Source: a virus. Taken from it: DNA of 64,000 bases. The position numbers were made by a program, and so were the translations under genes. The notes under the pieces are model-generated. The model made no database searches, had not been told where the DNA came from, and saw only the letters and a list, made by a program, of their open reading frames with translations. The DNA lies in IMG/VR virus record IMGVR_UViG_3300035698_022014, positions 11,602 through 75,601 of that record. One strand, given 5' to 3'. This document shows positions 14,236-54,138 of this stretch, piece by piece (the first letter of the stretch is position 1; every line of letters starts with the position of its first letter).

Positions 14236-15212
14236 TAAATCCCTCCTCTTATTCTGCCTGCTTGGTCAGTACTATTTAAGTTTGTGCTTGTACTTTCTGT
14301 ATCAATGTCAACACTACTACCGCCATAATCTTCTGATGTGTGGATATCCGATTCAATAATATTCATCTGCATCTGAACCACGGCAGGACGTCCACCGCGA
14401 AGTATGGCATTTCCATTGGTTGTAAAGTTAGAGCTGAAGGTTTGAATCATTGCCGTTTTAAAATGGAAGTAGTAATCAGGATCAACCCCTACAAAGAATA
14501 TGTCAACCATCGCAGGATATTTAAACATCGCTCTTTGAATCACAGACGTATTGACGTATTGCGGTAACATGTTTCGCTTTATTGTATCGGATATTTGTTG
14601 CAAGTTTACAGATTCTTGTGAACTCTTTGGAGCCATTGTCCAGTCAAAACTATGTGTCTTCATTTCCACACCGTCGAATGACAGAGCGGCTTTTGGGTTT
14701 ACAAAGGTTCCTGTTCCTGCATCTATGTTTCTGCCTTGATTTGGAAATGCTTGATCGATACCTTTTCTTGCAAGAAAAGCCAGATCCTGAGAGAGCTTTC
14801 CTGCAATCTCACTCGCGTTTGATCCTTGTATGTTCGGCATGCTCTTGAGTGCACTGCTACTAAGAGCGCCTGTTATACTTCCTATTCCTAAGTTGTCTAT
14901 GTCAACTTCAGATATCAAACTTGACACAGTCTCTCCCATAGAACCCTGATCAAAACGTTGTATCCTCACAGCAAACGAGTCGGATATGTTGGCAGGCAAA
15001 GGCAAAAATATTGTGTCTGAAACTGTCGATCCTGCACTCACTAATTGCGAGAAGCCTCTTTCAGAGGATGGACGAAACTGATAATCCCTAAACATCAACA
15101 ACATCCCATAATCATTGTCTTCAATGGGAAAGGAAAGGTTGGTTGACGTTGAGGATTTTGATGCTCTCATTATATCCTGTTTTATAGGTCTGAATCTTTG
15201 TCCGTTAGGCAT
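14235..15212 (-). CDS. Baseplate tail-tube cap gp48
   Basis: IFLPLP, NP....F.G..K.HSF.W...PKS..ES, YP; start moved to the ATG at 15212, downstream of a late promoter. Confidence 0.85.
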   Translation of the reverse strand: MPNGQRFRPIKQDIMRASKSSTSTNLSFPIEDNDYGMLLMFRDYQFRPSSERGFSQLVSAGSTVSDTIFLPLPANISDSFAVRIQRFDQGSMGETVSSLISEVDIDNLGIGSITGALSSSALKSMPNIQGSNASEIAGKLSQDLAFLARKGIDQAFPNQGRNIDAGTGTFVNPKAALSFDGVEMKTHSFDWTMAPKSSQESVNLQQISDTIKRNMLPQYVNTSVIQRAMFKYPAMVDIFFVGVDPDYYFHFKTAMIQTFSSNFTTNGNAILRGGRPAVVQMQMNIIESDIHTSEDYGGSSVDIDTESTSTNLNSTDQAGRIRGGI

Positions 15213-15280
15213 ATTGGTTCCTATTGTTATCGACGTGGTCGCTTTTGTCTCACCTGCTATTGATAACAGGTGATTACAGG

Positions 15281-15288
15281 TATTTATA
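15281..15288 (-). promoter_or_regulatory. T4-type late promoter TATAAATA (gp48 operon)
   Basis: Exact consensus in the divergent intergenic region; gp55 is in the window. Confidence 0.75.
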
Positions 15289-15364
15289 CGAAAACAATCA
15301 CACATCAACCCAATTTACATTCACGACAAATAAAAGTATTCAACAGTCAATGTTTTATTTATGT

Positions 15365-15372
15365 GATAAATA
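15365..15372 (+). promoter_or_regulatory. Late promoter variant GATAAATA (gp4 operon)
   Basis: 7/8 match upstream of gp4. Confidence 0.65.
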
Positions 15373-15417
15373 GTACACGCGTGCAATTTGCACCTATTGA
15401 TACGAAAAGAGGAAGTT

Positions 15418-15882
15418 TTGGCTTACAGAGGAAAATTTAGACCTAACAACCCTGGAAAGTACAAAGGGGATCCCACAAAGATCACCTACAGATCTTTGTG
15501 GGAGCTTAAAGTGTTCAGGAGATGCGACGATCACCCTGATATTATAGAATGGCAGTCTGAAGAAATCGCAATTCCTTATATGAACCCTGTAAAAGGCAAA
15601 ACAAGCAGATACTTTCCTGACATTGTAATAAAAAAGCGTGTTGGTATTGATAAATATGAGATGATCATGATTGAGATCAAACCTAAAAGTCAAACTAAAC
15701 CGCCCGACCCATCAAAAAAGAACAATACGCCTACAGGAAGAATATCAAGACGGTATATAAATGAGGCTGCTACATACGCTATTAACGAGGCAAAGTGGAA
15801 GGCAGCACAAAGGTATTGTAAAGAACGTGGGTGGATTTGGCACATTATGACAGAAGACGAAATTAAACCACTAGGGAAATAA
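15418..15882 (+). CDS. Head completion nuclease gp4
   Basis: KYKGDPTKITYRSLWE, RYFPD, EIKPKSQT, N.AKW.AA; probable TTG start at 15418 after GAGGA. Confidence 0.92.
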   Translation: MAYRGKFRPNNPGKYKGDPTKITYRSLWELKVFRRCDDHPDIIEWQSEEIAIPYMNPVKGKTSRYFPDIVIKKRVGIDKYEMIMIEIKPKSQTKPPDPSKKNNTPTGRISRRYINEAATYAINEAKWKAAQRYCKERGWIWHIMTEDEIKPLGK

Positions 15883-38711: not shown

Positions 38712-39230
38712 TTATTCCTCACGTTTTTTAGCTTTTGCTTTATCTCTTGCAAGTTTATCCTCAAAGTCACCAATGAAGGTGTCAATGTAATCTGCATCGA
38801 GACTTAGGTTCATTCCTATCTCGCCGCCACCGACGTGCGTTTCGCCCATCGCAAGCAGTGCCTGTGAGGACTTGAGTTTAGTGTAAAGGAATTTCTTCTC
38901 TTTTGCGATTCGACGTAAAAAAGCGAACCAAATGATCTGAGTGAAATATGCAAACGGATTACTCGATTTAGCTGCATCGAAATTCTCGATGTATAGCAGT
39001 GAGTTTTCTATTCCATCCATAACCATGTCCTCTCTGAACGCGTATCCTGAGAAGTTAGGCTTTGATGATAGTCGGTTGGAAATGTGGTAAATACACTCTC
39101 CAAGATAATTAGGAACAACAGGGAGCTGCTTACCTGCATCTCTCGCATCTTGACAGTTCTTCTTGTGTAGAATTAGCGCTTCGAGAAAGTCAGGATTGTT
39201 GACGTAGTTTCTCTTTTTTCTCTTTTCCAT
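38712..39230 (-). CDS. Late-transcription sigma factor gp55
   Basis: NYVNN, PNFSGY, SSNPFAYFTQI...AFLRRI.KEKK. Confidence 0.95.
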   Translation of the reverse strand: MEKRKKRNYVNNPDFLEALILHKKNCQDARDAGKQLPVVPNYLGECIYHISNRLSSKPNFSGYAFREDMVMDGIENSLLYIENFDAAKSSNPFAYFTQIIWFAFLRRIAKEKKFLYTKLKSSQALLAMGETHVGGGEIGMNLSLDADYIDTFIGDFEDKLARDKAKAKKREE

Positions 39231-39300: not shown

Positions 39301-42300
39301 TTAGATTGTAGTCGGGGTGTTCTCTTTAAGATATGCTACAAACTGTTCCATATAAAGAACCAGGCCATCACCCACTAAAAGACCAGCATAACGCTCATCA
39401 TACACTTCACTCACTGTTGCACTTGGAAAAACAACTGCAGGTCCTTGACTTGTTATGTCATAGAGCTCCTTAGGCAGTTTGCCTTCTTGTAGAGCCTCTT
39501 GAAAATCGACATATTCAATTTCATTCGTTTCCACATCTACAATAGGGATCATTCCGTCCCTGAATATAAATGTGGTTGTTGGTGCATAGTTGCTCATTAA
39601 TTCTTCCGTGATGTAATTTTTGAAGGTAGATACCTTGTTGTTATTATTAGAGTATACACCCTCAGCCAGGTGCTTGTCAACGTTTTGTTTTGTGGTTAAC
39701 TCAACTTCGTACACTTGCTGAATGCGCAACTGTGCAGGTGGATTAAACACACACCATTCAGGCGATCTGATACCACCACCTGCTCCAGGAACACCTGCAA
39801 CCTCATAGTCTGTTCTTTTTTTCCCAAGGTTAACATCCATCGAGAACAAATAGCCTTTTTGGCCTGCACGTCTTGAGTAGCCGCCATTAGAAACATATTG
39901 CAACGCTTTATCGACCTTGTTGCTGAAATATATACCATCGCCAAGCATTCTACCCACAACACCTGAATCAGAAGGCTTGATGACTCTGAACCCATATCTC
40001 AAAATCATCGATGCTGCAATACCGCCTGTGCCATGGTAAGCAGGTTCTACTGTTCCATCACCAAACTTATTGTTACGGAAGTCGTCAAACAGAGGGTTGT
40101 CTGTTGTTCCGTCATACACGTTTAGAATCTTAGGAAACACATCGCCATGCTTTCCTGCATGGTCTCTTTGAATGATGGTTTTGTTCAGTGCATTCACGTT
40201 TATAGTATCGTTTTTTGCAACATCCGGTTCGGGAAGAATTGTCCCTTTCTGAGCAATTGTAGCCTTTGCACGCGCAAAGAACTGCGTATACGTCTCGCCC
40301 TTCTTTTTCTTTGATACTGTGCCTGATACAATTGCAGATAAATCAATGTCGTTATACAAAAACAACTGCTTTAATCTATTTTTATCAATTTTATCGAACG
40401 GTTTAATGTCTCCGCTAGAAATTTCATCTATCAAAACTTGTGAGCCGACAAGTGACATTCTAATCTTCTGTACGACGTGAGGTGCAAGTCCATCGATGAT
40501 GTCATTAACATAATCTTCGACATCTGTGCCAATAGCGTCAAGAATGATTCCTGTCAGCACTTCAACATATTTTCCCTTGTTGTCCTTGTTGATATCTTTA
40601 TACAAATCTGCACTCATGATGTATTTTTTGTTTGAGGATTTTGCGAACCTCATCCATTCTAATACTGTCTCTGATGTTGCACTTGAAAGAAGGTTCATGA
40701 TAGTATTGCCACCCTTTGACGTATCAAAATCAAAACCAGTGTCTTTCTTTGCAATGATCAATGACGCTTTGGCCAAAGCGTCATTGATCTTGTCTTTATC
40801 ACCAGGCGCAAAACGTGCGACACTTACATTACCGTAGAAATCGTTTCTCGATTCAAGGAAGTTTGCTAACACCTGTGTATCAAGATCAGCAACACCGTCA
40901 CGTCGAACCTTAACACCTACTAGTGCTACATCACTAGGGAAATTGTCCATCATTTGCTCAAGATCAATGTTAAGCGTTCTAACAACATTGACAATTTTGT
41001 CAGGATTGTTAGCGCCGATAATTCTACCAATGGCTGATTTTTCAAAACCTACATCTACAAGGTCCGCTGCATAGCGGTCGTGCAACAGCTCAAAGAGCAC
41101 GCCGCCGTTTTGAGGAGCCTGTGTATTGTACACCTCTTCCTTTGTGAATTCTTCAAACAATTTTGGAACGATAGAAGCCTCATATGTAGGAAATAAATCA
41201 ACTCGAATGAAGTATTGAGCCATTTCCTCAATGCGGGCAATAGTTGCCCGTTTAAATAACTCGGGATTATAACCAATTGTTGATCTACTATTTCCTGATA
41301 CTATAAGGAGCCTGATAAACGAACCCGTAAACATGCCATCGCTGACCATATCATTATATACAGTTGATAAGAAATCTATTGATTGTGCAGCAACAAAATC
41401 TAACAAAATCGAACCATCACCGTATGTATATCTGATATTTCCATCAGGGTATTGTCGTATGATGCCATTAAACACGTTTTTAATGGGTATTTTACTTGAT
41501 GTTTCTGGATCAGAGACCATGAACGAAATCAATCTTCTTTTTTGTTTTTCCTCAACAGTTTTGTTGTATACTTCTGACAGAAGATAATTATTATTTTTAT
41601 TATTTATATATACGATACGCTTTATTAGTGGATCTTTTGCCTCTATTTCAAGTGCAGCATGTACAAGCCCTTCTATAGATGATTGGCGATAGGATGCTGT
41701 ATTACCACTGCTGTATATCTGATCGACGAACATTTCAAGAAAACCAATTGGCGTATATTTAGTCTTCCGTACAGCATTAGCTTGTTTAAGCACTGATGTA
41801 AAATCTTGGGAGGTGTCACGATCTCTAAAAGCTTGAAAATAATTTTCAACGTTGTACACTGTTTTATATATTGCTTCATATGCTTTGCGAGGAGCATCAG
41901 GTAGTTTAACAGCATAAAGCAAGGTATCTGCAAGATTGTATTTTGTTTTGATAAATTTAAGGGCCGCTGCTTCAAGTCTGTAATTATGATTTATATCGTC
42001 TGTGTGTATATCTATAAGGATCTTTATGCCCTCATCAATCAATTGATCTATATCGATGTTACTTGCAACTAATGCCTGCGCTGCCTCTCTTTCCTTCTGA
42101 TCAGCAGCAGCTTGGTCATCAATCACCTTCTGATCAATAGCAGCCTGAGCGTCAATCGCTTGTTGTGCTTGTTGTGCAGCAGCTTGTTTAATCAGTTTTT
42201 GACGTTGGTAGTAATTCAGCTTCGGTGCTGTAGGTGTAGCAACAACAGGGTCAACTGGTGCGCCTGTCAGTGCCGCAAGCTTCTTCAGTTTTTGACGTTG

Positions 42301-43014
42301 ATAATAGTTCATTGGTGGCGCAACAGCAGGTGTTGGAGCTGTACCGACCTGAGCTGATGGATCAACAATTGGTGTTGGCACTGCAGGCACTGCAGGAGTT
42401 GCAGCTGTGGCCATAGGAGACATTCCAGCAGGCTGTGGTGTTATTTCTGTCAACCCAAAGAATCTCTTGGCATATTTTTGATAGTCGCCACCACCATCAA
42501 CTGTATTGACTCTCTTCTTCAATTGAACAGCAAACCTGGAAACATCAACAGTCGTTCCGCCACCACCTACGAAATCATCAAATACTTGACGCATCTTTGT
42601 ATCTTTAATGTTCAATCGGAAACTTGGAACCATCCCTCTAAGCCATCCTGCAACAACGTTCGAGTCAATTGAATCGATTTGGCCTGATTTCAACTTAAAA
42701 AGGAATTTCGTTATTTCATTTGCTGTGATGTCCTGTTTGAAGAATCCAGCCTCATGAGCCAACTTAACAGACAAAGAAATGTCGTGGTTATCATCACCAA
42801 TTGATCCAAGACGTACCTGTTTGTCTTTGCGCAAGAACTTGATAATTGTTCCACGTTGGGTGGCGTTCGTTGCGTTAATCATCCCCAACATTCCGAGGAA
42901 GTTGAACATGAAAGCAGCAGCAACTCGATCTTTATCTGCGAGTAATGCTGCTCTTTCTGCATCGTTAGAGTAAAGAGAATTTTCCCCAAGAAAAGATTTG
43001 AAGTTTTTGGTCAT
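39301..43014 (-). CDS. 1237-aa putative internal virion protein with a PARP-like (H-Y-E) ADP-ribosyltransferase domain
   Basis: YHGT...ILRYGF...GRMLGDGIYFS...KALQY...SPEWCVF; N-terminus FKSFLGE; late promoter GATAAATA at 43055-43062. Confidence 0.8.
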   Translation of the reverse strand: MTKNFKSFLGENSLYSNDAERAALLADKDRVAAAFMFNFLGMLGMINATNATQRGTIIKFLRKDKQVRLGSIGDDNHDISLSVKLAHEAGFFKQDITANEITKFLFKLKSGQIDSIDSNVVAGWLRGMVPSFRLNIKDTKMRQVFDDFVGGGGTTVDVSRFAVQLKKRVNTVDGGGDYQKYAKRFFGLTEITPQPAGMSPMATAATPAVPAVPTPIVDPSAQVGTAPTPAVAPPMNYYQRQKLKKLAALTGAPVDPVVATPTAPKLNYYQRQKLIKQAAAQQAQQAIDAQAAIDQKVIDDQAAADQKEREAAQALVASNIDIDQLIDEGIKILIDIHTDDINHNYRLEAAALKFIKTKYNLADTLLYAVKLPDAPRKAYEAIYKTVYNVENYFQAFRDRDTSQDFTSVLKQANAVRKTKYTPIGFLEMFVDQIYSSGNTASYRQSSIEGLVHAALEIEAKDPLIKRIVYINNKNNNYLLSEVYNKTVEEKQKRRLISFMVSDPETSSKIPIKNVFNGIIRQYPDGNIRYTYGDGSILLDFVAAQSIDFLSTVYNDMVSDGMFTGSFIRLLIVSGNSRSTIGYNPELFKRATIARIEEMAQYFIRVDLFPTYEASIVPKLFEEFTKEEVYNTQAPQNGGVLFELLHDRYAADLVDVGFEKSAIGRIIGANNPDKIVNVVRTLNIDLEQMMDNFPSDVALVGVKVRRDGVADLDTQVLANFLESRNDFYGNVSVARFAPGDKDKINDALAKASLIIAKKDTGFDFDTSKGGNTIMNLLSSATSETVLEWMRFAKSSNKKYIMSADLYKDINKDNKGKYVEVLTGIILDAIGTDVEDYVNDIIDGLAPHVVQKIRMSLVGSQVLIDEISSGDIKPFDKIDKNRLKQLFLYNDIDLSAIVSGTVSKKKKGETYTQFFARAKATIAQKGTILPEPDVAKNDTINVNALNKTIIQRDHAGKHGDVFPKILNVYDGTTDNPLFDDFRNNKFGDGTVEPAYHGTGGIAASMILRYGFRVIKPSDSGVVGRMLGDGIYFSNKVDKALQYVSNGGYSRRAGQKGYLFSMDVNLGKKRTDYEVAGVPGAGGGIRSPEWCVFNPPAQLRIQQVYEVELTTKQNVDKHLAEGVYSNNNNKVSTFKNYITEELMSNYAPTTTFIFRDGMIPIVDVETNEIEYVDFQEALQEGKLPKELYDITSQGPAVVFPSATVSEVYDERYAGLLVGDGLVLYMEQFVAYLKENTPTTI

Positions 43015-43086
43015 TGTGTATTATATCCTTGTGAAAGCTGGTGCGTGTCTTCCTTATTTATCAAAACATCACACGCTTTGACTCTT

Positions 43087-43883: not shown

Positions 43884-44381
43884 TTAACTAATTTCTACCA
43901 GACTGACTTTTATCTGTTTTTCGCCTCTGAGTTGAGCAGCGACGACAGCATGGTGCCCATCACTTATAAAGAACTTCCCAGCGTGCTTAACAACGTGAAT
44001 GTGGTTAGGGTTTGTATTTGCGATCTTGCCGCGTAGCTTATCAACATCGTTTGTCATGACATATGGCTGTGTAGCAATTAACTGGCTGATGTTCAATGTC
44101 GCCTGTTTGTTCATTTTGTCGTACTGACGTTGGCCTTCATCTCTTACCTTCTTGTCTGCATCCTCCATTCCTAGCTCCATCTGCAAGTCATACAGTGCCT
44201 CTGCTGCTTGACCTGAAAGTTTTTCATCAAAGGATGTGAGGGGGATGTGACCTCCCTTTGGGACCTTCTCCCATGTGCCAAAGCTTGAACGTGTTCCATA
44301 TCTGCGAGATACACGCTGCGCGAGCCTTACAGGGTCCACCTTACGTTCAAATATTTGACAAAATTGTGTGAAAAGTATCAT
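43884..44381 (-). CDS. ParB/sulfiredoxin-like domain protein
   Basis: L.ATQ, I.VV......FISDGHH...A..L.G. Confidence 0.7.
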   Translation of the reverse strand: MILFTQFCQIFERKVDPVRLAQRVSRRYGTRSSFGTWEKVPKGGHIPLTSFDEKLSGQAAEALYDLQMELGMEDADKKVRDEGQRQYDKMNKQATLNISQLIATQPYVMTNDVDKLRGKIANTNPNHIHVVKHAGKFFISDGHHAVVAAQLRGEKQIKVSLVEIS

Positions 44382-44464: not shown

Positions 44465-45955
44465 TTAGTTGAGGTCAATGTTGAAGACTTTGAAAGGAAA
44501 TTGTTCAGAAGAATATATCTCAATTCGCTTCTTAAAGTGGTCTAATGTATAATTAGTATATGCACCATGAGTGATGTCATCGGCAATGTCATACAGTGTA
44601 GCTTCGTCAGCATTGTTACCTTTTCTTAGTACCCTACCAATAGATTGGAGAATGCGAACTTCTGATTTTGATCCTGATGCGAGAATTAGATTATCAAGCT
44701 TTTTGAGGTTCGTACCTGTTGAAAAAGTTCCGAATGAGGCGAGTATATCATGTCTCTTTATAGGATCATTTTCAATCTGATCACGTATCCGCTCTCTTTC
44801 CTCACCACTGACGTTTCCATGAATGAAGTGGAGGACGCGTCCTTCTTTGCGGAGCAAAGGCTCTAACACCTTACCATGCTTCTCTACAAGTTCAAACAAA
44901 ATAAGATTGTTCTGATCTTTGAGTGACCAGACGAGATTGCGTATGAATATGTTTCTCTTGCTGCTATTTATGATGAACTCACGCTCTGCATGGTAACGCT
45001 CTTCTTTTTTCAGCTTCTTAATTGCCTTTGAGAATGTTGATCGTGTCTGTGCAGGGTGTTTGAGAACAATTGCCTTAACATTGAATGTTGCAACCGTACC
45101 ACTATCAATCAGATCCTTTGTCGACACATACCTCTTAACATTTCCAAACAGTCCTGTCAAGATTAAAACATGCGTTTTAGAATCAGAGGAGATGGTACCA
45201 GTAAAGCCAAATCTATAAGGAGCTTCAGTACATTTCTCCATGATCTGGGTAAGTGACTTGCCAGTAAACAAATGTGCCTCATCACCCATCACAACGCGGA
45301 ATTGGTCAAACCACTCCTTTTGTAACGGTCCTAATGACTGCCATGTTGATATTACAATTTGTGCCGAGGTGTTTTTGTCAACCCCTCCTTGTATCTTGTA
45401 TATCAAGCTTGGATCACAGCCATAATCGATAAAGTCTCCTGCCATCTGATGTACAAGGGAAATTGTTGGGACGATTATCAGAACACGGTGTTGAAAGGCA
45501 GAAATGTAGTGGTGAGATATTAAATACTGCATGAACGATTTACCACTAGAAGTCGGCGAAAGAGATAGGGTTCTCTTTTTACGAATGGCATTGACAATGT
45601 AGTCGTTTTGATACTCACGAAGCTCGAGCTTCGTCCCTGTTTCCTTTGCTAATTGGTATCCGTAGTCGTCAGGAACATTTGGTTCGTCACATATTTCTTT
45701 GTCTACAATTAGATCATATGATCTAATTTCACAAAATTGTCGAAGTTGATCGATTAGACCTATGTGGAGATAAGGCTTGAATGGGGTGACCAGGCGAATA
45801 TACCCATCCCAAACTTTCGCTTTGTATTTCGGCGAGAATTGATAGTTTGCAGGTCGGAAGGCAAAGAATTCCATCAACTCCTGCATTATGCTCACATCAG
45901 CAATTACCTTCATGTGAACCTCATTCATCTTCTCAACTCGAATTGTGTCAGTCAC
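44465..45955 (-). CDS. uvsW: DNA helicase UvsW
   Basis: WDG.IRL, PTSSGKS, DEAH, GFTGT, LQSIGRVLR. Confidence 0.95.
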   Translation of the reverse strand: MTDTIRVEKMNEVHMKVIADVSIMQELMEFFAFRPANYQFSPKYKAKVWDGYIRLVTPFKPYLHIGLIDQLRQFCEIRSYDLIVDKEICDEPNVPDDYGYQLAKETGTKLELREYQNDYIVNAIRKKRTLSLSPTSSGKSFMQYLISHHYISAFQHRVLIIVPTISLVHQMAGDFIDYGCDPSLIYKIQGGVDKNTSAQIVISTWQSLGPLQKEWFDQFRVVMGDEAHLFTGKSLTQIMEKCTEAPYRFGFTGTISSDSKTHVLILTGLFGNVKRYVSTKDLIDSGTVATFNVKAIVLKHPAQTRSTFSKAIKKLKKEERYHAEREFIINSSKRNIFIRNLVWSLKDQNNLILFELVEKHGKVLEPLLRKEGRVLHFIHGNVSGEERERIRDQIENDPIKRHDILASFGTFSTGTNLKKLDNLILASGSKSEVRILQSIGRVLRKGNNADEATLYDIADDITHGAYTNYTLDHFKKRIEIYSSEQFPFKVFNIDLN

Positions 45956-47572: not shown

Positions 47573-48808
47573 GTGGAAATGAAAAAATATCTTGTGGGTG
47601 GTGCAGTTCGTGACATGCAAATGGGCATTGAGCCTAAAGATCTTGATTATGTTGTAGTCGGTGCTACACACGAACAAATGATTGCTGATGGGTTCGAGAA
47701 CGTTGGTGCTGATTTCCCTGTGTACCTCCATCCTGTTACAGGTGATGAGTACGCACTCGCACGACGTGAAAAGAAGACAGGTGTAGGATACATTGGATTC
47801 ACATCTGAATTTGATGTGAGTGTGACTCTCGAGGAGGATCTGGGGAGGAGAGACATTACTGCTAACAGCATGGCATATGATATTGATGGTGATGAAGGAT
47901 TAATTGATCCGTTCAATGGCCAAGATGATGTTGCTAACAAAGTTCTTCGTCACACTGGTATTGCCTTTGTTGAAGATCCTGTTCGTGTTCTTCGGATTGC
48001 ACGACTTCGCGCAAGGTTTGGCTCAGAGTGGACAGTTGCACCAGAGACAAAGATTTTGATTCATCAGATGGCCAAATCAGGTGTTCTCAATGAGCTGCAA
48101 GCTGAGCGTGTGTGGAAAGAAATGAGTCGTGCACTGATGGAACCAAACCCACAGCTTTTCTTTGATACGTTGCTTGAATGTGATGCGCTCCATGTTATAT
48201 TCCCTGAAATCTACAAACTGCTAACTGCACTAGAAAGCAACCGTTGGCATCCTGAGAAAAACGCCTTTCAACATTCTATGCTTGTACTCGAGCAATCTGC
48301 AAAGTTTGATTTTCCTCTTGATGTGCGCTTTGCATGTCTTGTTCATGATATTGGAAAAGGGCTCACACGTTTCGAGAATCTTCCAAGTCACCTTGGTCAT
48401 GATGTTAATGGGGTAGTTCTTGTAGAATCGTTTGCAAATCGACTTTCTGTTCCTGCAAAGATTCGTGATCACGCGATGAAGGCGACACGCTACCACATGA
48501 GCATGCATAAACTCGACACACTGAACGACAAGACGTTTGTCAAGATGTTTGATGCTATGAATGCTAAGAACGACCCACGCTGCATAGAGGTTTTACTACA
48601 GGTTGGTATTTGCGATGAGAGAGGGCGTCTTGGTTCCGAAAACAATCCTGTCGACCATCTCAATGTTCTGACTACACTGTTTGAAGCATATCACAGTGTG
48701 AAGTTTGCTGATGTTTTTCCAAACGGTCAAACAAACGTCAACAAGATTAAAGACGGTTTGTACAAGGCAAGAATCCAAGCAATTAAATCAGCTAGAGCCT
48801 CTAGCTGA
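47573..48808 (+). CDS. cca: Multifunctional CCA-adding enzyme (nucleotidyltransferase + HD phosphatase)
   Basis: YLVGGAVRD, D.DYVVVG, EYALAR.E.K, RRDIT.N, EDP.R.LR.AR, ERVW.E, LVHDIGKG. Confidence 0.93.
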   Translation: MEMKKYLVGGAVRDMQMGIEPKDLDYVVVGATHEQMIADGFENVGADFPVYLHPVTGDEYALARREKKTGVGYIGFTSEFDVSVTLEEDLGRRDITANSMAYDIDGDEGLIDPFNGQDDVANKVLRHTGIAFVEDPVRVLRIARLRARFGSEWTVAPETKILIHQMAKSGVLNELQAERVWKEMSRALMEPNPQLFFDTLLECDALHVIFPEIYKLLTALESNRWHPEKNAFQHSMLVLEQSAKFDFPLDVRFACLVHDIGKGLTRFENLPSHLGHDVNGVVLVESFANRLSVPAKIRDHAMKATRYHMSMHKLDTLNDKTFVKMFDAMNAKNDPRCIEVLLQVGICDERGRLGSENNPVDHLNVLTTLFEAYHSVKFADVFPNGQTNVNKIKDGLYKARIQAIKSARASS

Positions 48809-48811
48809 TTT
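48785..48811. repeat. 27-nt near-perfect palindrome spanning the cca stop codon
   Basis: AAATCAGCTAGAG-C-CTCTAGCTGATTT. Confidence 0.75.
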
Positions 48812-48859
48812 GAACTAAATGATAAATAGGGCATCCACGTCATAAAAAGGCTTGCTTTA

Positions 48860-49480
48860 ATGATATCATTTAAACAGCACATGAACGAGAACTATAAGAA
48901 CTTCATAGGTCCCGCTGAAACAAGAGTTCAACGTGAGAAATGGATTGATCAAGTGTGGGACATCGTACAGAAGTCTTATGCACCGATTGGTGGGATTCAA
49001 GGAAGTGGTTTTGGCTCCAAAAAAGACATGATTGAAAAGATCCCCTTCTGGAAATTGTACACCAAGGGGGATAAACTTCTAGCTGCAGCCTTCTATAAAG
49101 ATAAGGGTGGGCGAAAGTCAGTTGCAATTGCAACTGACGGGTCTGATGCTGGCAAGAAAGTTGTCGTGGATATATTCAAAGCGTCTCTTGGCGTTTCATA
49201 TGGTGAAAAGTCAGGGCCTGCTCTTGCAATGATGGTAAAAACAGTCCCGTGGGACGTGTTGCAGAACTTCATGCTCACACCAAAGCAAATAGCAAGAATT
49301 AGTGGCGTGGATGTAATGACAGTGGCGGAGTTTGGTGTAGAACAGTTGAATCCAAAAGATAAATTTACATACGATAAATTTCCTCAATTACGTCCTTTCT
49401 TCTATGTGAGATCACTTGGTGGAGAGATGCATCTGAAAGCTGCGATGGGAACTCCTAATCTTGATATAATTTCAAAATAG
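48860..49480 (+). CDS. Late hypothetical protein, probable internal head protein
   Basis: GATAAATA at 48821-48828; N-terminus MISFKQHMNE. Confidence 0.65.
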   Translation: MISFKQHMNENYKNFIGPAETRVQREKWIDQVWDIVQKSYAPIGGIQGSGFGSKKDMIEKIPFWKLYTKGDKLLAAAFYKDKGGRKSVAIATDGSDAGKKVVVDIFKASLGVSYGEKSGPALAMMVKTVPWDVLQNFMLTPKQIARISGVDVMTVAEFGVEQLNPKDKFTYDKFPQLRPFFYVRSLGGEMHLKAAMGTPNLDIISK

Positions 49481-53649: not shown

Positions 53650-54138
53650 ATGAAAATTGAATATCGTCATGGTGATGTGTTGAGTACAGACGTCACTCAC
53701 ATTGTACATGGCTGTAATAGTCACGGAGTGATGGGTTCTGGCGTTGCTAAGATGGTCAGAGCAAAATACCCCGTTGCATATCAAAGATATGTAGATGAGT
53801 ACAACTGTGTTGGTCTTAAACTAGGCACAGTCATTCCTTCTATTCAACCTGACGGCAAAGTGATTTATAATGCCATCACACAGCAAGACTATGGTACTAA
53901 TAAAAATGTAGTCTATAATTCCATCGTACAGCAAGACTACGGTACAAGCAAAAATGTAGTTTATGTGTCGTATTGGGCGATTGCCGAAGCTTTCAGACGT
54001 ATTGATTCGGCCAATATCAAAAAGATTGCGCTGCCGATGATTGGTGCAGGATTAGCAAACGGAGATTGGAATGTAATCTCTGCAATCATCGAAAACACCC
54101 TGACACGAACATTGCCTGTGGTATACATCTACGAATAA
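53650..54138 (+). CDS. Macrodomain protein (ADP-ribose binding/hydrolase)
   Basis: GDV, HGCN..G.MG.GVA, P.IGAGLA.GDW. Confidence 0.9.
   Translation: MKIEYRHGDVLSTDVTHIVHGCNSHGVMGSGVAKMVRAKYPVAYQRYVDEYNCVGLKLGTVIPSIQPDGKVIYNAITQQDYGTNKNVVYNSIVQQDYGTSKNVVYVSYWAIAEAFRRIDSANIKKIALPMIGAGLANGDWNVISAIIENTLTRTLPVVYIYE
53866..53961 (+). repeat. In-frame 48-bp tandem duplication inside the macrodomain gene
   Basis: YNAITQQDYGTNKNVV / YNSIVQQDYGTSKNVV. Confidence 0.9.

Follow-up and report, generated by a model that had tools for sequence, protein, structure and literature searches.

What does a T4-like phage do with a very large protein that carries a PARP-type ADP-ribosyltransferase (ART) domain near its C-terminus? 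The question is raised by an open reading frame on the minus strand (positions 39301-43014) of the window, the 64,000-nucleotide stretch of viral DNA analyzed here, which encodes 1237 amino acids without internal stops. The phage, an uncultured one, has been seen only in salt-lake metagenomes; its own contig is a 36%-complete fragment that lacks gp21 and gp23, and a sister genome, G001, is complete, with about 90% nucleotide identity. The original prediction had described the gene product as a PARP-like enzyme that is packaged in the capsid, matured by cleavage at both ends and injected. The present analysis points the same way: the gene probably encodes a head-packaged, injected effector of the PARP clade, which would do the job of T4 Alt with an ART of another clade, and all the computational tests run on packaging came out in favor of it.

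Is the enzyme really of the PARP type? On its sequence and modelled structure, the domain at residues 918-1110 (39685..40263, minus strand) is a PARP-clade (H-Y-E) ADP-ribosyltransferase, whose activity is predicted. It matches Pfam PARP (PF00644) over residues 948-1065 with 34.4 bits (gathering cut-off 26.7) and is the only part of the protein with a Pfam match. The motifs named in the original prediction are all present, both in the domain (YHGT, residues 993-996; GRMLGDGIYFS, 1021-1031; KALQY, 1036-1040; SPEWCVF, 1084-1090) and outside it (FKSFLGE, 5-11; HLAE, 1115-1118; FKNYITEE, 1131-1138), with the catalytic ones, at 39757-40035 of the window, falling inside the interval of 39700-40050 given for the domain. 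The full H-Y-E set that had been claimed consists of H994 (40033-40035), Y1029 (39928-39930) and E1086 (39757-39759), all on the minus strand; these three residues, as well as K1036 and Y1040, are invariant in 57 of 57 homologues. HMMER alignments to PARP1/2 cover H, Y, K and Y, with H994 and Y1029 aligned, and E1086 appears to correspond to PARP1 E988 by its strand position in the model (model residue 187, aligned range 19-211). The fold comparison that had been called for was made with an AlphaFold model of residues 900-1237 (mean pLDDT 87.6). An ART fold is present, and PARP1/2 are closest by a wide margin: Foldseek finds their catalytic domains at E ~1e-10, and VIA gives Z 15.9-16.5 for PARP1 (residues 786-1010; rmsd 4.0 over 182 residues for the top value) and 15.7 for PARP2. 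Other PARP-family chains score Z 10-15, and exotoxin A, diphtheria toxin, DarT, Tpt1 and R-S-E toxins reach at most 6.2. (The Z values do not discriminate between polymerases, with PARP1/2 and tankyrases at 14-16, and mono-transferases, with PARP3 at 14.0 and PARP10 at 13.7.) A multidomain PARP of the PARP1-3 type was rejected, as the Pfam search gave no WGR or PARP_reg and the structural alignment starts after the helical domain.

The protein belongs to a large family. It matches PHROG 18612 in two stretches (E 5.5e-134, 449.6 bits), its N- and C-terminal parts were matched by tblastn in 32 phage records, and metagenomes hold at least 460 clusters at 50% identity. Members of PHROG 18612 include Aeh1 ORF131c and proteins of phiAS5 and PX29 in Aeromonas phages, and Moby gp067, Ps15 ORF165 and a Mendera protein in Stenotrophomonas phages, so that the family is already annotated in both groups of phages, yet it is uncharacterized. 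Cultured phages gave no DNA-level match to the window's gene. The literature searched held no virion proteomics, N-terminal mapping or enzymology for any member of the family, and no publication on its processing or packaging.

Most of the protein is not enzyme. Residues 12-195 (42430..42981, minus strand) form a conserved all-helical domain (column conservation 0.55-0.76), modelled by AlphaFold with ten helices at a mean pLDDT of 91.3 and pTM of 0.88; it has no meaningful match in the PDB (Foldseek E at least 1.2, best VIA Z 5.1), and its matches in BFVD are confined to the family (the phiAS5 protein, for example). Next comes a Pro/Ala/Gln-rich linker (residues 196-335, 42010..42429) with two copies of a short motif, whose core NYYQRQKL lies at residues 236-243 (42286-42309) and 267-274 (42193-42216); its consensus, KLSYYQRQKLKKQQAA, is found in one or two copies in the 26 closest homologues in a linker that is otherwise variable, and two distant relatives have a WGR domain at this position. 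The central region (residues 336-780, 40675..42009) evolves fast and matches nothing in Pfam or Atlas. Over residues 336-640, identity is 69% to the sister phage protein and 22% to protein P0004, as against 96-98% and 73-79%, respectively, for the N-terminal and enzyme domains. Residues 781-917 (40264..40674), which precede the enzyme domain, are again conserved (0.48-0.71) and lie within the PHROG 18612 match; they do not align to the PARP helical regulatory domain, since the alignments begin at about PARP1 residue 786. The enzyme domain is followed by a linker (residues 1111-1140, 39595..39684) and a conserved C-terminal domain (residues 1141-1237, 39304..39594; column conservation 0.56-0.67) of mixed beta/alpha structure, with pLDDT 91-97 over model residues 250-330. 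(All these features are on the minus strand.)

Could such a protein be mainly structural, an ejection or pilot protein of the head or neck, in which the ART acts on phage DNA ends or head proteins, or is vestigial as far as host takeover is concerned? The large, conserved non-enzymatic domains at both ends and the long linker would suit this role, as would the genes of the L018 and L021 loci, which are co-oriented with, and lie between, the sheath and tube/portal genes; a cyanophage pre-ejectosome chain, 9k3a_B, also bears a weak resemblance to the ART, which would place ART-like folds among ejection proteins, although at Z 4.4 the match is not significant. However, nowhere is the protein more conserved than in its catalytic residues and NAD-binding motifs (0.88-0.92), which argues that enzyme activity is the selected function, and the NAD salvage genes that co-occur with it (see below) suggest that NAD is really consumed. 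Furthermore, Pfam, PHROG, Foldseek and VIA searches did not link it to any known ejection or tape-measure protein, and a mainly structural role is quite improbable.

A packaged effector, on the other hand, would be expected to bear the marks of its passage through the prohead, and candidate marks are found at both ends. The first 11 residues, MTKNFKSFLGE (42982..43014, minus strand), are a predicted propeptide resembling a capsid-targeting signal and ending in L-G-E. In 56 of the 57 homologues, an (L/I/V)-x-E stands near the N-terminus with N-(S/T)-L-(Y/F) behind it, and across the first 200 residues only two alignment columns are invariant, E11 being one of them; the model gives residues 1-9 a pLDDT below 50. 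The likening of FKSFLGE to the T4 capsid-targeting sequence holds up well: the peptide resembles the MKTYQEFIAE of T4 IPII/IPIII (from the T4 record) and the MKSFKKLIAE with which a head-module protein encoded between the portal and protease genes of the sister genome begins, and four proteins start with MxxFKxxhxE versus 0.77 expected. The conserved L-x-E-N-S-L-Y could alternatively be a structural N-terminal element instead of a cleavage site. The peptide preceding the (L/I/V)-x-E varies from 3 to more than 30 residues among homologues. In some it consists of only 3-4 residues (MLKE, MLLE), shorter than any mapped T4 propeptide, and targeting may therefore not rest on the N-terminal peptide alone.

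At the other end, the candidate prohead-protease sites claimed just after the enzyme domain are also conserved in the family. L-A-E-1118 (39661-39663, minus strand) is found in 49 of the 57 homologues and I-T-E-1137 (39604-39606, minus strand) in 48, with variable sequence in between. Both predicted sites lie in the linker after the ART domain, which has pLDDT below 50 over residues 1123-1140 (model residues 224-241), and apart from the N-terminal site they are the only two well-conserved L-x-E outside the folded domains. (L-T-E-190, which closes the N-terminal domain here, is found in only 28 of the 57.) The C-terminal domain would thus be a second propeptide. Since the 36%-complete contig lacks gp21 and gp23, the protease of this phage has to be deduced from the sister genome, which encodes a Peptidase_S77 at 128.6 bits (a gp21-type protease) along with scaffold and capsid genes.

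When would such a protein be made? A T4-type late-promoter-like motif, GATAAATA, lies at 43055-43062 on the minus strand, 40 nt before the ATG. The promoter form NATAAATA is not enriched over the window as a whole, and the copy here is not significant alone. Comparatively, the case for the late promoter that had been proposed is strong: of 36 non-redundant homologous loci, 24 carry NATAAATA at 31-53 nt before the start, versus 6.1% of random windows. (Aeh1 has no canonical NATAAATA upstream of its homologue.) No sigma-70-like site was found directly upstream of the gene. T4 alt has a hairpin plus TATAAATA at the same upstream position, and in Stenotrophomonas phage Moby a hairpin and then a late motif are found where they are in T4 alt. 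In T4-like phages, NATAAATA promoters are read by gp55, and a gene for a gp55-like late sigma factor lies directly downstream of the PARP-like gene (38712..39230, minus strand). Its product has a weak Pfam match to Sigma70_r2 (17.6 bits, below the cut-off of 24); the gene adjoins gp47/gp46-like genes, as in T4, and is 96% identical in the sister genome. Synteny and size suggest that it is gp55.

The surroundings of the gene differ between lineages. In the window it sits among replication and recombination genes (gp55, gp47, gp46, uvsW), outside the head module. In at least three uncultured lineages, it is found inside a sheath/tube/portal or a protease/capsid cluster, and in L046 it is downstream of Peptidase_S77 and Gp23. 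The local setting fits an enzyme that is never packaged, a cytoplasmic ART restrained by a phage-encoded eraser (an ADP-ribosylglycohydrolase, ARG, or a macrodomain) and acting in a toxin-antitoxin-like manner, in superinfection exclusion or in late remodelling of host proteins. There is a precedent in Iyer et al. 2022 (PMC9503650), where an ART of Aeromonas phages, apparently a PHROG 18612 homologue, forms a toxin-antitoxin pair with a neighboring ARG, and the Aeh1 homologue is indeed directly downstream of an ARG gene, the only locus with an adjacent ARG. The genome also encodes a macrodomain. However, neither an ARG nor a macrodomain is adjacent to the gene in this phage or its sister, and a cytoplasmic enzyme leaves unexplained the late-promoter motif found across the family, the location inside virion gene clusters in those lineages, the L-x-E sites, which are near-universal and fall precisely on domain boundaries, and a length of about 1200 amino acids with conserved non-catalytic domains at both termini. 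We consider it unlikely. An ART-ARG pair of the Aeromonas kind was rejected for this locus, where the neighbors are the gp55-like gene and two small open reading frames with no Pfam match, and where tblastn found no ARG in the contig or in the sister genome.

The macrodomain proposed as the eraser does exist: a protein encoded at 53650..54138 (plus strand) matches Pfam Macro at 36.3 bits (cut-off 22) and is 78% conserved in the sister genome. It is 10.6 kb from the PARP-like gene, on the opposite strand; in pf16-like loci and in L045, a macrodomain homologue follows the PARP-like gene at a distance of 2-4 kb. This loosely supports a part for it in erasing the enzyme's product. The sister genome carries NadM-like, NAMPT-like and Macro genes, and the Aeh1 and Moby homologues are near ARG, NAMPT and NadM genes. 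A lineage with its own NAD salvage pathway might also harbor an enzyme that is mainly an NAD+ glycohydrolase or consumer, depleting or diverting NAD+, or immune signals made from it, as infection begins, an option raised in the original prediction, and NADases do exist within the ART fold. Against this, both fold and motifs belong to the transferase PARP clade, with an acceptor-site-type lysine (K1036) and the catalytic E1086 among them, and characterized PART and Alt family members modify macromolecules (PMC9503650). Moreover, a few tens of injected molecules would presumably deplete the cellular NAD pool only slowly. Simple NAD consumption is very unlikely.

How, then, would a packaged effector work? 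The gene would be transcribed late from its own gp55-type promoter, GATAAATA, and the 1237-residue precursor would be incorporated into the prohead core. The IPIII-like N-terminal peptide would provide at least part of the guidance, with the conserved domains at the two ends perhaps contributing. The gp21-type prohead protease would then cut after E11 and after E1118 and/or E1137, taking off an N-propeptide of 11 residues and, at the C-terminus, a folded domain of 100-119 residues, and leaving a mature protein of about 1107-1126 residues with the enzyme domain at its new C-terminus. Ejected with the DNA, this protein would ADP-ribosylate host macromolecules with host NAD+ in the first moments of infection, and the macrodomain and NAD salvage genes that the sister genome shows may limit collateral modification and replenish NAD. 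A bolder version, which we regard as doubtful, is a poly(ADP-ribose)-forming zymogen that is inhibited by its C-terminal domain until cut inside the prohead and is active only on injection; targeting to host nucleic acid or protein would fall to the fast-evolving central region and the YYQRQKL motifs, whose place a WGR takes in some relatives, and the salvage genes and macrodomain would complete a set of writer, eraser and NAD supply.

To our knowledge, the one model of an injected ADP-ribosyltransferase is T4 Alt, which is an R-S-E enzyme. Were the packaging reading true, a large family would fill the role of Alt with a PARP-clade enzyme, PARP-type chemistry would gain a concrete role in the conflict between phages and bacteria, and the phage NAD salvage genes would be matched with a defined consumer of NAD. 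The logic of propeptides at both ends, as in Alt, would extend to an unrelated cargo, bearing on the question, raised when the C-terminal processing of Alt was found, of the purpose of such propeptides (targeting, tethering or activity control). The cultured relatives in Aeromonas and Stenotrophomonas phages make this reading directly testable.

How does the protein compare with known systems? Its closest kin, the PHROG 18612 proteins, are likewise full-length at 1150-1250 amino acids and match it in architecture and in the sites at the N-terminus and after the ART, at 31-39% identity; unlike these members from cultured phages, the window's protein is a distant one from an uncultured salt-lake phage. 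With the ART domains of PARP1, PARP2 and tankyrase it shares the fold (Z 14-16.5 over about 170-180 residues), the H-Y-E triad, G-x-G-I-Y-F and K-x-x-x-Y, but it lacks the helical regulatory domain, WGR, zinc fingers and BRCT of eukaryotic PARPs, and identity is 17-23%. Polyvalent virion proteins (Iyer et al. 2017) combine several effector domains in one packaged polypeptide; in the 1237-residue protein, Pfam, Atlas, Foldseek and VIA searches recognize a single enzymatic domain, and its N-terminal, central and C-terminal parts gave no match that points to a function. Phage ARTs, including those of the PART/PARP family, are described in two surveys as common in myoviruses and as predicted often to be packaged and injected (PMC9503650; PMC7824862). 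Those predictions came from MuF/portal fusions and head-gene neighborhoods, whereas the PHROG 18612 family has no such fusion; protease-site and late-promoter evidence of the kind presented here was not found in those surveys.

A further comparison is with T4 Alt itself, a head-packaged, injected mono-ADP-ribosyltransferase, which is cleaved at ITE-6 and LTE-619, as shown by mass spectrometry (PMC5694885; see also PMC9026906 for the cleavage geometry). Alt processing was thus mapped by experiment, whereas the 1237-residue protein is known from sequence and models. The two differ in clade, R-S-E (Alt/VIP2) versus H-Y-E (PARP), and in length, 682 versus 1237 amino acids, nearly double, and the C-terminal piece of 63 residues in Alt compares with a folded domain of about 100 residues, a predicted propeptide, here. 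Neither hmmsearch of family profiles nor BLASTP found anything significant anywhere between them, the C-terminal domain has no sequence similarity to the Alt C-terminus, and tblastn found no Alt homologue in the sister genome. Both come from a T4-like myovirus with a gp21-type protease, and in both cases the gene lies away from the head cluster and is preceded by a hairpin and then a late promoter of its own, a predicted one here. Each protein begins with a short propeptide, predicted in the PARP-clade protein, that closes with (I/L)-x-E, and each has an enzyme domain near the C-terminus and, after it, two L-x-E (LTE-619 and LME-630 in Alt) followed by a C-terminal piece that, in Alt, is removable.

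The gene at 39301-43014 (-) runs through 1237 uninterrupted codons, and its product carries an ADP-ribosyltransferase (ART) domain at residues 918-1110. All of the motifs that the original prediction had read in this protein were found where they had been placed, and the PARP-type fold with an H-Y-E set was borne out. The Pfam PARP family (PF00644) matches with 34.4 bits, above its gathering score of 26.7, and in HMMER alignments to PARP1/2 chains H994, Y1029, K1036 and Y1040 pair with the H, Y, K and Y of the PARPs. (A full-length family profile found no match among PDB sequences, but the single-domain query and Pfam did match.) When an AlphaFold model of residues 900-1237 (41 homologues as input, mean pLDDT 87.6) was compared with known structures by Foldseek, as had been proposed, the catalytic domains of PARP2 and PARP1 came first (E ~1e-10, probability 1.00). 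VIA-align placed model residues 19-211 on PARP1 786-1010 with a Z of 16.5 and an rmsd of 4.0 over 182 residues. An unbiased comparison with 48,161 chains gave Z scores of 11-16 for PARP1, PARP2, the tankyrases and PARP3/4/10/13/15/16, and none higher than 6.2 for exotoxin A, diphtheria toxin, cholix, DarT, Tpt1 or the R-S-E toxins. H994, Y1029, K1036, Y1040 and E1086 show no variation among 57 homologues, and the stretch that holds them is the most highly conserved in the protein. Because of the Pfam match, the fold match and the invariant catalytic residues, the protein is a PARP-clade enzyme, and by sequence and model it should be catalytically competent. Fold scores do not distinguish polymer-forming from mono-transferring PARPs, and neither the helical regulatory domain nor a WGR domain was found in the protein by Pfam or structural alignment. 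The family falls into at least 460 clusters at 50% identity, of which 183 reach E 1e-30 or better; most of the proteins are 1000-1700 aa long and carry the enzyme domain close to the C-terminus.

The source contig is a 75.6-kb, 36%-complete IMG/VR record of an uncultured T4-like phage, and only salt-lake metagenomes contain near-identical DNA. Here the neighbors of the gene are replication genes: a gp55-like gene and then gp47/gp46-like genes lie downstream on the same strand, and two small ORFs, a ParB-like ORF, uvsW and uvsY lie upstream. Neither gp21 nor gp23 was found in the contig, because it is a fragment, and the head genes were therefore sought in G001, a complete sister genome (208 kb, 100% complete, ~90% DNA identity to the contig), of which locus L008 is a part. 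The two phages also differ in uvsW: the gene at 44465-45955 (-) matches G001 168730-171595 in two pieces, residues 1-397 and 411-496, separated in G001 by ~1.4 kb of DNA that the window lacks, which suggests that the sister's uvsW carries an insertion, for example an intron, intein or homing element.

How would such an enzyme reach its targets? The mechanism that we favor, and consider probable as a whole, is that the precursor would be made late and built into the prohead core, that a gp21-type protease would cut it after E11 at one end and after E1118, E1137 or both at the other, and that the mature protein, which would then end with the enzyme domain, would be ejected together with the DNA to ADP-ribosylate host targets, consuming host NAD. 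The T4 gp21 protease recognizes the pattern (L/I/V)-x-E. In 56 of the 57 homologues, a prepeptide that varies in length and sequence ends in this pattern directly before N-(S/T)-L-(Y/F), an arrangement also seen in further viral contigs, and within residues 1-200 only E11 and one other column are invariant. When the complete alignment was scanned for other conserved (L/I/V)-x-E sites, two that lie outside folded elements proved to be well conserved, L-A-E-1118 (49/57) and I-T-E-1137 (48/57), in keeping with the candidate protease sites originally placed past the enzyme domain, where cleavage itself is predicted. The stretch between them is variable and lies in the low-pLDDT linker directly after the enzyme domain. 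L-T-E-190, considered as a third universal site, occurs in only 28/57 homologues and is therefore optional at best. In some homologues the prepeptide has only 3-4 residues, which means that targeting must involve more than the N-terminal peptide. The conserved LxENSLY could be a structural element, and the whole protein might be mainly a structural or ejection protein; this explains less of the evidence, which includes the invariant catalytic residues, than does a packaged and injected enzyme.

The remainder of the protein is elaborate. The disordered prepeptide (residues 1-11) is followed by a confidently predicted all-helical domain (12-195, pLDDT 91), a linker rich in Pro, Ala and Gln (196-335), a fast-evolving center (336-780), a conserved stretch preceding the enzyme domain (781-917), the ART domain itself, a low-confidence linker (1111-1140) and a conserved, well-folded C-terminal domain (1141-1237), for which any inhibitory role would be conjectural. 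For the N-terminal domain, Foldseek gave E values of at least 1.2 against the PDB, BFVD yielded only family members, and an unbiased VIA search reached at best a Z of 5.1, a value without meaning for a helical domain; a search of the ESM Atlas with the central region produced no usable match. The linker carries a conserved NYYQRQKL motif twice (cores at 42193-42216 and 42286-42309 (-); family consensus KLSYYQRQKLKKQQAA). One or two copies occur in the 26 closest homologues amid variable Pro/Ala-rich sequence, and two distant relatives (P0053 and P0077) have a WGR domain after the N-terminal domain, where this linker would be. The motif may serve to bind nucleic acid or a partner. Residues 336-640 (41095-42009 (-)) share 69% identity with the sister phage, between flanking domains that share 96-98%, and 10-22% with more distant homologues, for which the flanking domains share 46-79%; target-specific or arms-race change would fit this pattern, as would a weakly constrained spacer. 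At 40756-40789 (residues 742-753), the gene contains a perfect 34-nt palindrome, GATCAATGACGCTTT-GGCC-AAAGCGTCATTGATC, with a 15-bp stem and a 4-nt loop. In the sister genomes (L005 and L008) it is changed at two positions (A to G, T to C) and is still perfect because the changes mirror each other, one compensatory pair where divergence is ~9%. It was not found in more distant homologues; possible roles are those of an RNA hairpin or of a binding site for a protein.

Evidence that ties the protein to the head comes from the sister genome. The head genes found in G001 are those for a Peptidase_S77 (gp21-type) protease (128.6 bits), a scaffold, a major capsid protein and a portal of the T4 type. 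The gene between the last of these and the protease gene (L069:10766-11467 (-), equal to G001 86766-87467) codes for a 233-aa protein that starts MKSFKKLIAE, almost the targeting peptide of T4 IPII/IPIII (MKTYQEFIAE, T4 record). The start of the PARP-like protein, MTKNFKSFLGE, resembles both, in line with the earlier likening of FKSFLGE to a T4 targeting peptide. Four G001 proteins, including the PARP-like one, start with MxxFKxxhxE, where 0.77 would be expected from shuffled N-termini. The 233-aa protein itself matches only PHROGs of unknown function, and a 351-aa protein at G001 14693-15748 starts MIRFKQYLSE. In the window, a 206-aa ORF at 48860-49480 (+) has a capsid-targeting-like start, MISFKQHMNE, a peptide that ends in (L/I/V/M)-x-E; upstream of the ORF (48770-48859) are a hairpin and then GATAAATA 31 nt before the start, an arrangement like that of the PARP-like gene, and its homologue in L009 lies directly downstream of the PARP-like gene. 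This ORF is a candidate second head cargo. The ParB-like ORF (43884-44381) was rejected for that role: NATAAATA is missing from the 90 nt before it, and its start does not match the strict N-terminal pattern.

Gene order in other phages points the same way. The PARP-like gene of three uncultured lineages is within the morphogenesis cluster, co-oriented between the sheath gene and tube/portal genes in L018 and L021, and co-oriented after Peptidase_S77 and Gp23 in L046; in L054, capsid-, sheath- and tube-like matches flank it (tblastn only). In the window's lineage, the gene has moved beside gp55 and gp47. Neither the papers on pf16, Ps15, DLP6 and Ochrobactrum phage vB_OspM_OC nor literature searches on the Aeh1 group yielded virion proteomics data on the homologues.

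A late promoter had also been predicted. The motif GATAAATA (43055-43062 (-)) stands 40 nt upstream of the ATG, but such a lone site means little, because NATAAATA is no more common in the window than expected. Among 36 non-redundant homologous loci from IMG/VR, however, NATAAATA occurs in 24, at 31-53 nt before the start codon, compared to 6.1% of random 220-nt windows from the same loci. This comparison is the only informative evidence for the putative late promoter, and it favors the prediction. The Aeh1 homologue lacks a canonical late motif, and scans for sigma-70 promoters and terminators gave nothing exceeding shuffled controls.

G001 has NadM-like and NAMPT-like genes and a macrodomain, and neither Alt nor ARG (ADP-ribosylglycohydrolase) was found in it by tblastn. 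NadM and NAMPT lie at a distance of 3 kb from the Moby homologue; in Aeh1, the homologue comes directly after ARG, with NAMPT close by, and in pf16-like loci a macrodomain lies 2-4 kb downstream. Iyer et al. read the Aeromonas ART-ARG pair as a toxin-eraser pair (PMC9503650), and the present protein might likewise be half of a cytoplasmic pair. The macrodomain gene suggested as its eraser is real (53650-54138 (+)) but lies on the opposite strand, at a distance of 10.6 kb. Such a pair, or a role simply as an NAD-consuming enzyme, explains less of the evidence, which includes conserved protease sites and virion-cluster placement, than does the injected enzyme.

The closest parallel is T4 Alt, which, as had been stated, belongs to the R-S-E clade (PMC9503650). 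By mass spectrometry, Alt was shown to be trimmed by 6 residues from the N-terminus, at ITE-6, and by 63 from the C-terminus, at LTE-619 (PMC5694885; PMC9026906). Its sequence starts MELITE and has L-T-E-619 and L-M-E-630 after the enzyme domain (T4 record), the same layout as in the PARP-like protein, and T4 alt and the Moby homologue both have a terminator hairpin and then a late motif at the equivalent position upstream. Neither N-terminal, C-terminal and full-length HMMs nor BLASTP found significant similarity of the family to Alt, and homology of the non-catalytic parts, including an apparent C-terminal resemblance, was discarded. The likeness is one of design and not of ancestry; there is no detectable sequence similarity, and the ART clades differ. 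PARP-family ARTs in phages, and the frequent packaging of phage ARTs, are published ideas (PMC9503650, PMC7824862), and Stenotrophomonas phage homologues are already annotated as ADP-ribosyltransferases; the two-ended protease-site design, conserved late promoter and virion-cluster placement of this family were not found in the literature searched. Because of these three features, the family is probably a PARP-clade counterpart of Alt.
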